Positions 892 to 12,776 of a stretch of DNA of 15,112 nucleotides are shown here, in pieces. The DNA is from a virus. Its lineage: Duplodnaviria; Heunggongvirae; Uroviricota; Caudoviricetes. The position numbers and the translations under genes are program-made. The stretch lies in the IMG/VR virus record IMGVR_UViG_2541047905_000022; one strand, written 5' to 3'. The notes below the pieces were generated by a model, which saw only the letters and a list, made by a program, of their open reading frames with translations, was not told the DNA's origin and ran no database searches. Every line of letters starts with the position of its first letter. Within the stretch, counting starts at the first letter, position 1.

Positions 892-981
892 GGAGAGATG
901 CCGGAGCGGCTGAACGGACCGGTCTCGAAAACCGGAGTGGGGGCAACTCCACCGGGGGTTCAAATCCCCCTCTCTCCGCCA
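892..981 (+). tRNA. serU: tRNA-Ser (anticodon CGA), 90 nt including encoded CCA
   Basis: Acceptor stem GGAGAGA (892-898) pairs with TCTCTCC followed by G-CCA (979-981); anticodon stem CCGGT/ACCGG with 7-nt loop CTCGAAA, anticodon CGA at 926-928; long variable arm typical of class II tRNA-Ser; TTCAAATCC T-loop. Confidence 0.9.
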
Positions 982-5274: not shown

Positions 5275-5832
5275 TCAACAATGAATTTTTAGCAATTGCT
5301 CCACAGTCATATTTTTAATTGCGCTCCGGTTTACAAGAGTCCATCCTTGTTTCTCCAGATAAAACCGGAAGGTATCCAGGGTGCAGACCATTGCGCCGTC
5401 AGGAACGGTTTCAGTGAATTTGATATTGCCGTGTTCGTCGAGACGGATAACCAGGGTGCGTCCGTCCCCGTGAATCATTTTGTCGGGAGACGGGGCGTTA
5501 TTCTGGCGCAGTTCTGCTTCCATGCGGTCGAACTCAGCAATGTATGCCTCTTTAAATGCAGCGGCTTTTTTGCCAGTGAAGCCCATCACCAGGAAAACGA
5601 AGCCGTTTTTGGTGATTTGGTACATTGGGAGTTTGCGCCCGGTTGAGTCGGTGTATTCGCTTGACACAAAATTGTGCTCAGTGAATTTTGCTGAACAGTC
5701 CAGATTGCGAATTTTATCCAACACTCGTTCGTGGCGTTTGCCAAAGAACTCGGCGATCGCAACAGACGTAGTGACAGCGCGACCATTTTCGATGGTTACG
5801 TCAGGGTGAGAAAGGGTAAGGATAGTAGCCAT
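5275..5832 (-). CDS. rha: Phage regulatory protein Rha family, 185 aa
   Basis: ORF 5275..5889 trimmed to the internal ATG at 5832, which has a GGAGG Shine-Dalgarno 8 nt upstream; N-terminal domain MATILTLSHPDVTIENGRAVTTSVAIAEFFGKRHERVLDKIRNL... is the characteristic Rha fold sequence. Confidence 0.85.
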   Translation of the reverse strand: MATILTLSHPDVTIENGRAVTTSVAIAEFFGKRHERVLDKIRNLDCSAKFTEHNFVSSEYTDSTGRKLPMYQITKNGFVFLVMGFTGKKAAAFKEAYIAEFDRMEAELRQNNAPSPDKMIHGDGRTLVIRLDEHGNIKFTETVPDGAMVCTLDTFRFYLEKQGWTLVNRSAIKNMTVEQLLKIHC

Positions 5833-6002
5833 GATGGCAGCCTCCGCGATGAATTTGATTAACTCACCACCGAGGTTTTCCACGACCATAAGGGTGGTGA
5901 GACGTACAGGGGTGGAAAATACCGGTCATCACGGAACCCGGCCAGCCTTGCGGCTGCCCTGCACGCCCCACCATAATGCGAATGTGGCTGTGCTTAACGC
6001 AT

Positions 6003-6025
6003 AAAAAAACCGCCTGAGCGCGGTT
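6003..6025 (-). terminator. Rho-independent terminator (minus strand) between DicF and rha
   Basis: On the minus strand: stem ACCGC - loop GCTCAG - GCGGT followed by a run of 7 U (plus-strand A7 at 6003-6009). Confidence 0.5.
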
Positions 6026-6318
6026 ATGCGCCGTGAATGATTTCGGGTTTCCACGCCCGGCACCCGTTTTATGAGGTGCAGGTGCACTATAATTCCACCC
6101 GTTCTGGTTTTCAATAGCTACATTCAACATTTTCTCTACCTTTCATCACCGAAGTGAACTTTGTTGATGCGGTGCCTGGTGCCTCCAGGTGACGTTAACC
6201 AGTTAACAATTAACGTCGGATACAGAGCATTCCCGTTACGCCCGTAAAAGACCGCTTGTTTTAACTGTTCCGCGTGCGCTGAGCCGCATTCACCGCATCA
6301 CAAAATTCACTTTAAAAA

Positions 6319-6371
6319 GGGCGGCAGAGCAGTCACGGAGTAGAACTGATACCGCCAAAAGTCACCAGAAA
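6319..6371 (-). ncRNA. dicF: DicF small regulatory RNA (ftsZ-targeting antisense sRNA of dicB-type prophage operons)
   Basis: Minus-strand sequence TTTCTGGTGACTTTTGGCGGTATCAGTTCTACTCCGTGACTGCTCTGCCGCCC followed by TTTTT differs at only 2 of 53 positions from the E. coli K-12 DicF sequence as I recall it; located upstream of dicB as expected. Confidence 0.85.
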
Positions 6372-6709
6372 ATTGATAACAGAGGGCGTTGCAGCGGGGT
6401 TGTCACTTAAGCGTATGGTCAACCTGACAACCCGGTGTCCTCAACGGGGAAGGAATAACCCCGTCATACTTACCGCCGCGCCATTTCGCGGAGTGTCACA
6501 ACCGGAAGCGCACGGTCGACGAAAATTTAACGACAGGCTATCTATGAACCAGCTACCTCGCCGTGCGCTTTCGCGTTATGGTCTGACTTTTCATGGAAAT
6601 ATCCTTTCAGTAAACTGTCAGTGCCGGATTCTTATCCGTGTCCGGCGCACGACCACACGCTGTCACGAGAGGTCTCCATTCTCAACCAGTAACCTCAATG
6701 GAGGATAAA

Positions 6710-6904
6710 ATGTCAGAGCAGGAGTTAAAACTTGGTGCATGTTATTGTGTTCTCAAGGAGCTGGTACACATGCTTCCATCTACTCAGTATCAACAGTTAG
6801 TTGGCAATTTAAATCAGCGAATCGAAGCTATGTTAAAATCTGATGGTTTTAATAACGTAGAAACGCTGATGCTAAAAAGATATCTTGATGGATTAATCAG
6901 ATAA
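6710..6904 (+). CDS. Hypothetical small protein, 64 aa, encoded antisense to the leftward dicB-type operon
   Basis: ATG at 6710 with a GGAGG Shine-Dalgarno 5 nt upstream (6700-6704); ORF MSEQELKLGACYCVLKELVHMLPSTQYQQLVGNLNQRIEAMLKSDGFNNVETLMLKRYLDGLIR; AT-rich codon usage; its 3' end overlaps the convergent 116-aa gene by 12 nt. No recognised family. Confidence 0.4.
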   Translation: MSEQELKLGACYCVLKELVHMLPSTQYQQLVGNLNQRIEAMLKSDGFNNVETLMLKRYLDGLIR

Positions 6905-7243
6905 CATTTTTTTACGGCGTTCATATTCGTTAATATTTATGAAGCCTGTTGCCAGAAGCAGTTCGTTAATTTCATGGTTGTTTGGCTGTTTCTGGCTCTT
7001 TGAACTGGGATCTTCCACTTCTTTTTCTGCAAATTGTTTTGCTGTATCCTCTGTGCCATGGATATTTAAAGCTGTATCTGAAAACAGCCCAGTAAACGCA
7101 TCGCGCACATTACGAGCCATATTATCAGTGTCTTTTTTTGTTACCGATTCCAATTCAAGTTCGTTCAGACGATGACGAAGTGTGTGTGCTGCAATCTCCT
7201 GGATTGAAGGAGGTAAATCTTTAAATTCCATCGTCAACCTCAT
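6893..7243 (-). CDS. YdfB/YdfC-like uncharacterized protein (dicB-type operon), 116 aa (112 aa if started at ATG 7231)
   Basis: ORF 6893..7243; start overlaps the stop of the upstream small gene (coupling); an internal ATG at 7231 has a GAGG Shine-Dalgarno. Sequence EFKDLPPSIQEIAAHTLRHRLNELE resembles what I recall of Qin YdfB. Confidence 0.65.
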   Translation of the reverse strand: MRLTMEFKDLPPSIQEIAAHTLRHRLNELELESVTKKDTDNMARNVRDAFTGLFSDTALNIHGTEDTAKQFAEKEVEDPSSKSQKQPNNHEINELLLATGFININEYERRKKMLSD

Positions 7244-7395
7244 CAGTCGGAGTTTCTTGCTAACCAGCGACGCGCGCCAGCTTCGGTTTTAAACGTTTTG
7301 CTTTTGGTATACGTCATGGCGGTGAATGTGCCGTCCTGGTTGGGGAACACACCACATACCAGAGATTCGCTGTTGCCAAGATCGATAGTATCCAT
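7243..7395 (-). CDS. YdfA-like small protein, 50 aa
   Basis: ATG at 7395 preceded by GAGG (5-nt spacing); product MDTIDLGNSESLVCGVFPNQDGTFTAMTYTKSKTFKTEAGARRWLARNSD. The ORF-track 85-aa version requires a TTG start at 7500 that sits inside the predicted leftward promoter/operator, so I prefer the 50-aa form. Confidence 0.6.
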   Translation of the reverse strand: MDTIDLGNSESLVCGVFPNQDGTFTAMTYTKSKTFKTEAGARRWLARNSD

Positions 7396-7584: not shown

Positions 7585-7992
7585 TTACTGATGTTTGTTA
7601 CGTTTGCGAGCTTCTAGTAGCTCGGTGAATAGGCGATTAAAATTCTCAACGCGGGCACGGAGTTCGCTGATTTGTGCTTGCTGCTCTGATTTTGGAAGTG
7701 CGCGATACAATCGCAACATCTCCAACTCATCTTCCGATAAGTCTAAGGCGCTGTTGAGTGCTACTGGTGGATCTGGTGTTTTATCCTCGTCACCAAACAG
7801 TATCCAAGTTGGTGAACATTGCAATACCTCAGCCAGGCGATGCAAATTTTGCCCGCGCGGGGCTGTATGGTCGCTTTCCCATAGTGAAATTGATGAGCCA
7901 GATACGCCAGCGGCTTTGCTTAAATCGTTTTGACTTAAACCAACCTGTTTGCGTCTTTCTCTAATTCGTTGACCTAAAGTTTTCTCGTTCAT
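7585..7992 (-). CDS. dicA: Prophage repressor, DicA-like HTH XRE-family protein, 135 aa
   Basis: ORF 7585..7992; N-terminal HTH LGQRIRERRKQVGLSQNDLSKAAGVSGSSISLWE; the segment VLQCSPTWILFGDEDK and the C-terminal RARVENFN..LFTELLEARKR match my recollection of E. coli DicA (also 135 aa); divergent from a Cro-like gene. Confidence 0.9.
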   Translation of the reverse strand: MNEKTLGQRIRERRKQVGLSQNDLSKAAGVSGSSISLWESDHTAPRGQNLHRLAEVLQCSPTWILFGDEDKTPDPPVALNSALDLSEDELEMLRLYRALPKSEQQAQISELRARVENFNRLFTELLEARKRNKHQ

Positions 7993-8069
7993 ATTTAGAT
8001 ATCTTAATAACCCTTGACTTGAGATTCCTTGAATGATTACTATTGAGAAAACTCAACTTTGGAGGGGTG
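7993..8069. promoter_or_regulatory. Divergent immunity-region promoter/operator (OR-like) between dicA-like and dicC-like genes
   Basis: Rightward -35 TTGACT (8014-8019), 18-nt spacer, -10 TACTAT (8038-8043); operator-like palindrome TTGAGAAAACTCAA (8043-8056) at the predicted start site; 8-bp palindrome AGATATCT at 7997-8004; GGAGG Shine-Dalgarno at 8061-8065. Confidence 0.55.
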
Positions 8070-8297
8070 ATGTTTAAATCAGACGTAATTAATTTTTATG
8101 GGACGAAAGCCAAAGTAGCGAAAGCTGCTGGTGTTGATCCATCTGCTGTTTCTCAATGGGGGGAACTGGTTCCTGAAGGTCGCGCGATGCGCCTGCAAGA
8201 GGCATCCGTCGGGGAACTTCAGTACGACCCCAAAGTTTATGACGAATATCGTAAGGCAAAGCGGGCGGGGCGGTTGAACAATGAAAATCACCCCTGA
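8070..8297 (+). CDS. dicC: DicC-like Cro-type small regulator, 75 aa
   Basis: ATG at 8070 after GGAGG; product MFKSDVINFYGTKAKVAKAAGVDPSAVSQWGELVPEGRAMRLQEASVGELQYDPKVYDEYRK... resembles my recollection of DicC (76 aa); divergent from the repressor. The ORF-track start at 8043 is a TTG inside the promoter. Confidence 0.8.
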   Translation: MFKSDVINFYGTKAKVAKAAGVDPSAVSQWGELVPEGRAMRLQEASVGELQYDPKVYDEYRKAKRAGRLNNENHP

Positions 8298-12444: not shown

Positions 12445-12499
12445 GGCTGCGGGTGCTTGAGGCTATCTGTCTCAGGCATGAACACTGAAAGGCAGATAG

Positions 12500-12572
12500 A
12501 GAAAAGCCCCAGTTAACATTTCGCGTCCTGCAAGACGCTTAACATTAATCTGAGGCCCAATCTATGTCTCAC
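12500..12572 (-). ncRNA. Candidate Sok-like antisense RNA of the hok locus
   Basis: Minus-strand -35 TTGCCT (12607..12602), 17-nt spacer, -10 TAACCT (12584..12579); the predicted antisense transcript would cover the GAGG Shine-Dalgarno (12552-12555) and in-frame upstream ATG (12564) of the hok leader. The 3' end is not defined; a GCGTC/GACGC hairpin lies at about 12522-12537. Confidence 0.3.
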
Positions 12573-12620
12573 AAATGTAGGTTAGCCTCTTACGTGCCGA
12601 AAGGCAAGGGGAAGCAGGCT

Positions 12621-12776
12621 ATGAAGCAGCAAAAGGCGATGTTAATCGCCCTGATCGTCATCTGTTTAACCGTCATTGTGACGGCACTGGTAACGAGGAA
12701 AGACCTCTGCGAGGTACGAATCCGAACCGGCCAGACGGAGGTCGCTGTCTTCACAGCTTACGAACCTGAGGAGTAA
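12621..12776 (+). CDS. hok: Hok/Gef family type I toxin (HokD/RelF-like), 51 aa
   Basis: ATG at 12621; product MKQQKAMLIALIVICLTVIVTALVTRKDLCEVRIRTGQTEVAVFTAYEPEE, which I recognise as Hok-family (essentially HokD/RelF); single transmembrane helix plus conserved C-terminal tail. The ORF track extends it in-frame to 12564 (70 aa), a mok-like upstream start. Confidence 0.85.
   Translation: MKQQKAMLIALIVICLTVIVTALVTRKDLCEVRIRTGQTEVAVFTAYEPEE

Follow-up and report, generated by a model that had tools for sequence, protein, structure and literature searches.

The window analysed here, a stretch of 15,112 nucleotides (nt) from the IMG/VR record IMGVR_UViG_2541047905_000022 (Caudoviricetes), includes the immunity region and the early-left region of a lambdoid prophage of the DicF type. 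Between the gene for the small RNA (sRNA) DicF and a minus-strand early-left gene encoding 116 amino acids (aa) lies a plus-strand open reading frame (ORF) of 64 codons, which runs from an ATG at 6710 to a TAA stop at 6902-6904 (positions 6710..6904). A sequence-only reading of this DNA had drawn attention to this ORF, and the finding was real but under-interpreted: what lies at the locus is a small gene under selection, placed in a conserved, structured and swappable slot. The elements it had described were recovered, namely the GGAGG Shine-Dalgarno (SD) sequence at a spacing of 5 nt, the convergence with the minus-strand ORF 6893..7243 with a 3' overlap of 12 nt, and the position inside, and antisense to, a leftward dicBF-type operon; the distance from the ORF to DicF measures about 340 nt. 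Its description of the neighbour as ydfB/C-like holds by position only, since BLASTP gave no alignment of the 116-aa protein to either YdfB or YdfC, and this identification was ruled out.

The length of the ORF is within what chance would produce, since 41 ORFs in the window reach 80 aa or more and many of these are spurious; the reality of the gene thus rests on conservation. The gene is not newly discovered, as RefSeq and the Prokaryotic Genome Annotation Pipeline (PGAP) already annotate exactly this ORF as a 'hypothetical protein' (WP_001295058.1), and the identical protein is present on at least 1000 contigs under the NCBI label 'MULTISPECIES: hypothetical protein [Enterobacteriaceae]'. 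PHROG 4987, a family of unknown function, is matched over the full length (E 3e-49). Homologues were found in Salmonella (P0003, 86% identity) and Citrobacter (the core of P0006, 72%), and an exhaustive profile search covering 1.8 billion representative proteins added one from Edwardsiella tarda (P0008, 67 aa, 45%) and a further member of 65 aa (P0009, 36%). All these proteins measure 64-67 aa and start at an ATG equivalent to 6710 in five different prophage contexts, the length being kept in prophages of E. coli, Salmonella, Citrobacter and Edwardsiella; we therefore take 64 aa to be the full length. In every context the gene is opposite in strand to the surrounding early-left genes and converges on its neighbour.

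The ratio of non-synonymous to synonymous substitution rates (dN/dS), calculated in the frame of the ORF according to Nei-Gojobori, was 0.27 between the window and Salmonella (Fisher p 0.006), 0.31 between the window and Citrobacter (p 0.002) and 0.22 between Salmonella and Citrobacter (p 8e-5). Substitutions are skewed to third positions, and the other two forward frames hold 4-8 stops. The conservation and Ka/Ks check proposed along with the original observation thus came out in favour of the gene, the frame being kept across four genera with dN/dS values of 0.22-0.31. It is intact in all copies save one, a 59-aa variant disrupted by an insertion sequence (IS); on this IMG/VR contig (L050, from 1122) a transposase insertion near the 3' end shortens the ORF. 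Two in-frame alternatives exist upstream, an ATG at 6698 and a GTG at 6638. The DNA before 6710 carries an in-frame stop in Salmonella and frame-shifting indels elsewhere, and the distant members use the conserved ATG; we therefore rejected the N-terminal extension of the Citrobacter protein, annotated with 103 aa, as an over-extension. A tblastn search of 50,697 phage records with the ORF returned no match (the family is present in PHROGs and IMG/VR), and a protein-pattern scan of species-representative genomes with the family alignment confirmed nothing. Taken together, the 64-codon ORF is a real prophage gene under purifying selection as a protein.

The start codon of this gene coincides with a mosaic joint. 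O157:H7 and other prophages share 90-97% identity with the window between DicF and ...AATGGAGGATAAAATG, this homology ending at GGAGGATAAAATG. Directly after the ATG they continue with an unrelated plus-strand ORF of 69 aa (WP_001133037.1, PHROG 4274), which converges on a 212-aa gene, and similarity to the window returns near 7090, within the N-terminal part of the convergent gene. The exchanged cassette has its left joint at the start codon and its right joint near 7080-7090, with a GC content of 0.31-0.41 against about 0.5 in the flanks. In the Qin prophage of K-12 the shared sequence ends at about 6650; it is followed by ydfC, on the strand of dicF, and a plus-strand ORF is absent. Among 5426 complete E. 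coli genomes the ORF was found in 152, the 96 nt upstream of it were matched in about 960 and the flanks in more than 4300. The gene therefore displays the presence/absence polymorphism and the deviant base composition by which morons are recognised, and alternative cargoes fill the same place.

About 90 nt before the ATG are conserved in DNA even ahead of the homologues with 45% and 36% identity, and TGGAGG..AAAATG is unchanged ahead of all cargo ORFs. Salmonella has two tandem modules, each with its own leader, the second leader standing before a 69-aa ORF 0.5 kb away. Scanning for leaders with the pattern GTGTCCGGC-N15-40-CTCCATT-N8-28-TGGAGGNNAAAATG gave matches on at least 120 IMG/VR contigs and in three species-representative genomes (Edwardsiella ictaluri, E. 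anguillarum and Pluralibacter gergoviae). The Stx2e phage phiP27 possesses the full leader, and many induced coliphages have a partial version like that of K-12. The ORFs that start at the ATG of the leader fall into at least 10 clusters unrelated by BLAST, of 30-104 aa, one of them GhoS-like, two zinc-ribbon-like and the others of unknown function. One leader of about 90 nt, joined to its cargo at the start codon, thus serves at least 10 unrelated small ORFs. PADLOC matched no defence model to the ORF, its partner or the other cargoes.

Two of the alternative cargoes can be described further. A 94-aa protein (MAKFTVRIELRD...; IMG/VR loci L030, L038, L058, L061 and others) reaches 21.2 bits with the GhoS model of Pfam, for a cut-off of 21; GhoS is the antitoxin RNase of the type V GhoT/GhoS system. 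Another cargo is a proline-rich peptide of 30 aa.

The RNAalifold consensus of 27 distinct leaders consists of exactly three helices (hairpins 1 to 3, Table 1), with 94.3% of cells paired versus 24-42% when the partners are slid by 1-3 columns. Hairpin 1 occurs once in the window, where 0 matches are expected by chance, and is invariant in 27/27 aligned leaders, including those retrieved by protein homology and that of K-12 Qin. Hairpin 2 covaries, its stems being CCACACG/CGTGTTGG (in RNA CCACACG/CGUGUUGG), CACATG/CATGTTG, CTCCAT/ATGGAG, CCCAAC/GTTGGG and CCCTAC/GTAGGG, with CTCCAC/GTGGAG in K-12, and five pairs change on both sides in a compensatory manner. Hairpin 3, which is followed in the window by AUAAAAUG, has 97.5% of its cells paired in the consensus and is present in the single-sequence minimum free energy (MFE) structure of 7 of the 11 leader types listed. 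For 37 of 45 unique leaders the predicted fold is more stable on the plus strand than on the minus strand (mean -31.2 versus -27.6 kcal/mol). None of the Rfam 15 covariance models, run over 6371-6960 on both strands at E <= 5, matched the leader. Upstream of it, transcription is predicted to start near G6623, and in 8 of 9 upstream contexts that are otherwise unrelated, hairpin 1 is preceded at 6 nt by a -10-like hexamer, two of these contexts having the TG of an extended -10. This fixed distance suggests that a plus-strand transcript starts at hairpin 1.

Variants of the leader were noted in two further settings. In Edwardsiella-type leaders (L010, L139 and L017), hairpin 2 reads CUCCAU...AUGGAG and repeats the anti-SD and SD of hairpin 3, so that alternative anti-anti-SD pairings are possible, a design typical of switchable leaders. 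K-12 Qin (L016, NC_000913.3 about 1,649,080-1,649,165, minus strand, equivalent to window 6588-6672) has retained the promoter-like element and hairpin 1 together with a hairpin 2 in compensated form, which there are antisense to the spacer between ydfC and dicF. K-12 may possess either an antisense RNA that is not annotated or an element for processing the minus-strand transcript.

The gene on which the ORF converges is itself composite. Five PHROG families have in common with the 116-aa protein only its N-terminal 50-60 residues, which make up a 'MEFKDL' domain of about 55 aa, and their C-terminal parts differ. PGAP flags the gene as a truncated pseudogene, a classification that we rejected: the reading frame is kept with respect to a 119-aa gene of Salmonella, and omega is 0.28 in the cassette-specific C-terminal half, so that the flag is probably wrong. 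Across the loci, each type of cargo has its own partner C-terminus, the 69-aa cargo being paired with proteins of 212-216 aa ending IYAEHxPLWIxW and the 64-aa cargo with proteins of 116/123 aa ending NEYERRKKMLSD(QSIKISF), and the 3' ends of cargo and partner overlap by 4-33 nt in every case. Citrobacter is the exception to this co-variation, as the ORF is present and only a remnant of the partner is left. The partners of two distant PHROG 4987 members have unrelated N-terminal parts (80 aa in one and, in the other, 186 aa with a stretch resembling a helix-turn-helix, HTH) and related tails (E 1.7e-6); the likeness of these tails to that of the 116-aa protein is weak (E 0.04-0.14 in a tiny database). 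A tail motif LLLxxGxIxxxEY can be recognised in the partners of three divergent members of the family (L010 6201-6425, L014 6188-6748 and window 6893-6970). As far as sequences can tell, this pattern suggests that the cargo and the convergent gene form a functional pair.

As for the product of the ORF, its best candidate relative is IraP, an anti-adaptor of RssB that stabilises RpoS. The AlphaFold2 (AF2) model of the ORF protein consists of three helices (residues 3-20, 24-44 and 49-62) with a mean predicted local distance difference test (pLDDT) score of 80. The Pfam family PF10796 (IraP) is the top match for 5 of 6 family members, always in one register, in which ORF residues 12-64 correspond to IraP 30-83. 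Two relatives score 19.5 and 20.2 bits, and the Edwardsiella protein P0008 (WP_097363914.1) reaches 24.5 bits (E 4.6e-5), above the cut-off of 23.2 bits. An hhalign comparison of the family with 13 IraP sequences returned E 5.6e-4, again in this register. The name 'sigma-S stabilization anti-adapter protein IraP' is given by NCBI to P0008 as well as to the Citrobacter protein. The 103-aa Citrobacter version is what produces the NCBIfam IraP hit (NF007598), and the window ORF has no NCBIfam hit. In the AF2 model of IraP the helices span 2-38, 42-58 and 67-82, and once the ORF positions are shifted by +18, its predicted helix 1 ends, and its predicted helices 2 and 3 begin, at the positions predicted for IraP. 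Family members align only to positions 20-83 of the PF10796 profile, full-length IraP having about 86 aa. A sequence search of the PDB with the family profile gave only noise, and the solved structure of IraP (PDB 8gkv) is absent among the fold matches listed. The relationship is credible, if unproven, and we consider the ORF product to be, with fair probability, a remote homologue of IraP in a short form; that it acts as an anti-adaptor of RssB is rather doubtful. In the searchable literature, which is incomplete, we found no description of the leader, the slot or an IraP-like cargo.

The other features of the region are collected in Table 1. Genes for a C4-type antisense RNA and an IsrK-like sRNA (5890-6079, minus strand) lie directly upstream of the gene of the Rha antirepressor; at a Salmonella locus (L004, 4923-6437) this C4/isrK unit exists in three tandem copies, each with an ASH-family gene. 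The tRNA gene at 892-978 (plus strand) adjoins a 341-aa minus-strand ORF (1034-2059) that sits where an integrase would be expected, and this is probably the prophage attachment site. Strain 266917_2 has an identical immunity region next to potC/potD, the same module therefore being found in prophages at different integration sites. The sok match of the window is part of a type I toxin-antitoxin locus of the hok/sok type; the locus L001 has an annotated hokD at the corresponding site. Finally, the hairpin formed at the overlapping 3' ends of the ORF and its neighbour (-11.9 kcal/mol, z = -2.2) has the same structure in the Salmonella copy; a terminator scan of the window did not report it.

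Table 1. Position, strand and main characteristics of features in the window.
Feature	Position	Strand	Remarks
tRNA gene	892..978	+	Rfam
Rha antirepressor	5275..5889	-	Pfam
C4-type antisense RNA	5890..5978	-	Rfam
isrK	6003..6079	-	Rfam
DicF sRNA gene	6319..6370	-	Rfam RF00039, 71.5 bits
DicF-precursor spacer, upstream of DicF	6371..6622	-	Nearly identical in K-12 Qin and O157 prophages
Candidate sigma-70 promoter	6588..6616	+	-35 TTTTCA 6588-6593, 17-nt spacer, -10 TAAACT 6611-6616
Leader hairpin 1	6623..6646	+	GCCGGAU-loop-GUCCGGC; predicted 5' end of the transcript
Leader hairpin 2	6651..6673 (about)	+	Covaries among prophages; degenerate in the window
Leader hairpin 3	6674..6703	+	Helix of the anti-SD CUCCAUU (6674-6680) with AAUGGAG (6697-6703), covering the SD
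SD GGAGG	6700-6704	+	5-nt spacer ATAAA, then ATG
64-codon gene	6710..6904	+	PHROG 4987, RefSeq WP_001295058.1; probably a short IraP-like three-helix protein
Low-GC exchange cassette	6713..7085	both	Body of the cargo ORF and variable C-terminal part of the convergent gene
Candidate weak bidirectional terminator	6874..6912	both	AU-rich hairpin with an A-run on one side and a U-run on the other, where the 3' ends of the two genes overlap
Convergent 116-aa early-left gene	6893..7243	-	Conserved N-terminal 'MEFKDL' domain about 7081-7243; cassette-specific C-terminal part ending ...ELLLATGFININEYERRKKMLSD
DUF1391/YdfA-like protein	7243..7395	-	Pfam
DicA-like HTH repressor	7585..7992	-	Pfam
Cro-like protein	8043..8297	+	Pfam
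sok/hok locus	12451..12626	+	Rfam; strong match to the sok antitoxin RNA, 120 bits

On balance, we favour an explanation in which the ORF is a genuine accessory cargo gene behind a conserved expression platform, the cargo being in this case a short relative of IraP. The proposed platform lies on the strand opposite the repressed early-left operon and combines a promoter-like element, a 5'-terminal hairpin, a covarying hairpin, the CUCCAU/AUGGAG helix and the invariant AAAATG start, the ORF being one of many interchangeable genes found behind it. Recombination would exchange the cassette from just after the start codon to a point inside the convergent gene, and the cargo would therefore travel with the matching C-terminal segment. 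Transcription is expected to occur from the gene's own promoter and independently of the early-left operon, as for sieB and other morons expressed in lysogens, and translation would be gated by the opening of the SD-sequestering helix. The protein could then act by binding a partner, either RssB or another host target in the manner of IraP, or the C-terminal tail of the convergent product. The most complete form of this explanation would join an undescribed translation-gated platform, cargoes matched to partner C-termini as a polymorphic effector/modulator system, and an IraP-derived mini-protein tapping RssB/RpoS or neutralising its partner; that all three hold together seems unlikely to us.

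Several observations weigh against the favoured explanation and concern mostly the promoter, the folding of the leader and the likeness to IraP. The candidate promoter is weak, each hexamer matching the consensus at 4/6 positions, and a consensus promoter scan did not report it. Hairpin 2 is degenerate in the window's own leader (-1.7 kcal/mol), and hairpin 3 is absent from the single-sequence MFE structure of that leader. In the pattern by which most leaders were retrieved, the anti-SD, the SD and the 3' arm of hairpin 1 are set in advance, so that the invariance of these parts is in part due to the way the leaders were collected, and hairpin 2 is the sole independent test of covariation. In addition, K-12 Qin keeps the promoter-like element and hairpins 1 and 2 without a plus-strand ORF, and these elements might therefore serve the minus-strand DicF precursor. 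As regards the protein, the window product scores 14.4 bits with PF10796 (E 0.062), below the cut-off of 23.2; the hhalign probability for the family and IraP is 30%, and the exhaustive profile search of 1.8 billion proteins retrieved no canonical IraP at E <= 1e-3. IraP residues 1-19 have no counterpart in the family; they belong to the N-terminal coiled coil, predicted for residues 1-35 of IraP, in which the L9S substitution impairs activity (PMC4428439).

The same data can be read in other ways. The C-terminal domain of the convergent gene might be an activity released on induction, with the plus-strand protein as its cognate neutraliser or chaperone, produced constitutively from a promoter of its own. 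Such an effector/modulator pair would explain why cargo type and partner C-terminus co-vary across loci, why the cassette joints enclose both and why their 3' ends overlap in every case (4-33 nt), and it is also in line with the three divergent PHROG 4987 members (36-45% identity) that converge on genes with the LLLxxGxIxxxEY tail behind different N-terminal parts. It fits poorly with the Citrobacter copy, which has the OR​F and just a partner remnant; moreover, neither protein belongs to a toxin or defence family according to Pfam and PADLOC, the likeness of the tails to the 116-aa protein is marginal (E 0.04-0.14 in the tiny database) and physical linkage alone could explain the co-inheritance. 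We hold this pair to be an unlikely account of the locus. A chance or decaying frame without function, for example the remnant of an IraP-like gene, would agree with the shortness and AT-richness of the ORF and with the pseudogene flag that PGAP put on its neighbour. It is barely tenable and largely refuted by the conservation data, since the length of 64-67 aa is kept in four genera, dN/dS values are 0.22-0.31, no copy but the IS-disrupted one of 59 aa has a broken frame, and the neighbour is itself conserved (omega 0.28).

The relation to DicF calls for separate consideration, as the sequence-only reading had proposed that transcription of the ORF would be antisense to the DicF precursor and could modulate DicF/DicB expression. 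The first part is borne out by synteny with the K-12 ydfABC-dicF-dicB operon, the transcript of which is processed into DicF (PMC5069750): the ORF and its leader are antisense to the expected DicF primary transcript. Plus-strand transcription might on these grounds be a cis-antisense or convergent brake on the DicF precursor and the dicB operon, the peptide being incidental, and the distance of the leader from DicF (about 270-280 nt in the majority of loci of the E. coli type, and about 250 nt in the window) would agree with this, as would the promoter-like element and hairpins 1 and 2 that K-12 Qin has without the ORF. Nevertheless, neither the ORF nor the leader overlaps mature DicF, and their linkage to dicF is not obligatory, as the modules of Salmonella, Citrobacter, Edwardsiella and Pluralibacter have no DicF nearby; since the module occurs without DicF, antisense control of DicF can be no more than a side effect. 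Selection on the ORF is purifying at the protein level, and an invariant SD and ATG ahead of 10 different protein cargoes would make no sense for a pure RNA function. Modulation of DicF/DicB as the main function is thus not supported, and we consider a mainly RNA-level role of the locus improbable; effects of convergent or antisense transcription on the early-left transcript are physically possible, but secondary. A still less probable alternative would regard the leader as mainly a recombination linker, a minus-strand processing element or both, the ORFs being carried along and this one expressed poorly or not at all. In its favour, lambdoid phages typically have mosaic joints at gene boundaries, K-12 keeps hairpins 1 and 2 with a compensated stem without a plus-strand ORF, and for some variants (L058, L067 and A at column 11) pairing is better on the minus strand. 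Against this, the plus strand is the more stable one in 37 of 45 leaders and is favoured by the U·G intermediates, the SD, its spacing and the ATG belong to the invariant part, the Salmonella tandem places two copies of the leader before two plus-strand ORFs, and selection acts on the ORFs.

Should the leader be a working platform, as the favoured explanation proposes, the slot would be a recombination hot spot at which small host-modulating proteins are exchanged among prophages of E. coli, Salmonella, Edwardsiella and relatives, and the leader would provide a simple sequence handle for finding such genes. At least 10 families occur at this slot, nearly all of unknown function, one being IraP-like and another GhoS-like. 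With a phage-borne IraP-like protein, if confirmed, prophages would have a direct means of altering how stable RpoS is and how well pathogenic E. coli, including ST131 and further clinical isolates, tolerate stress. For the interpretation of experiments on the dicBF operon it matters that the 'long untranslated region' preceding DicF contains conserved, structured elements which probably function on the opposite strand.

Comparison with known systems places the locus near four of them. Like IraP (YaiB; PF10796, NF007598, PDB 8gkv), the ORF product is small, enterobacterial and predicted to be all-helical; it differs in having 64 instead of 86 aa, an identity to IraP of about 15% and, for the window protein, a score below the family threshold, and in being prophage-borne, the IraP gene lying next to phoA. 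Leaders that sequester the SD are known from RNA thermometers, and alternative structures control the lambda cIII mRNA. The conserved CUCCAU/AUGGAG helix resembles these, and hairpin 2 of the Edwardsiella type would permit alternative pairings, whereas the leader described here is a predicted structure without a match in Rfam even at E <= 5. The immunity genes of pore-forming colicins are oppositely oriented to their toxin genes, and the C-terminal domains of polymorphic toxins travel with immunity cassettes; similarly, a protein with a conserved N-terminal and a variable C-terminal part here co-varies with a small adjacent convergent gene, which, having its own putative promoter, could be expressed while the other gene is repressed, as in colicin immunity. 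Unlike these systems, neither protein has homology to known toxin or immunity families, and the Citrobacter copy has no partner. Finally, morons and other lysogen-expressed genes lie antisense in lambdoid early-left operons, such as sieB of lambda, P22 and Rac. Our ORF resembles them in being small, accessory, AT-rich, polymorphic in presence and opposite in strand to the early-left genes, with an apparent promoter of its own and a weak terminator as candidate elements, and has no sequence relationship to SieB. To our knowledge, descriptions of morons include neither a shared structured leader nor a cassette that spans part of a convergent gene. In contrast to morons, unrelated cargoes share here a structured leader together with its start codon, and the swapped cassette takes in part of the convergent gene.

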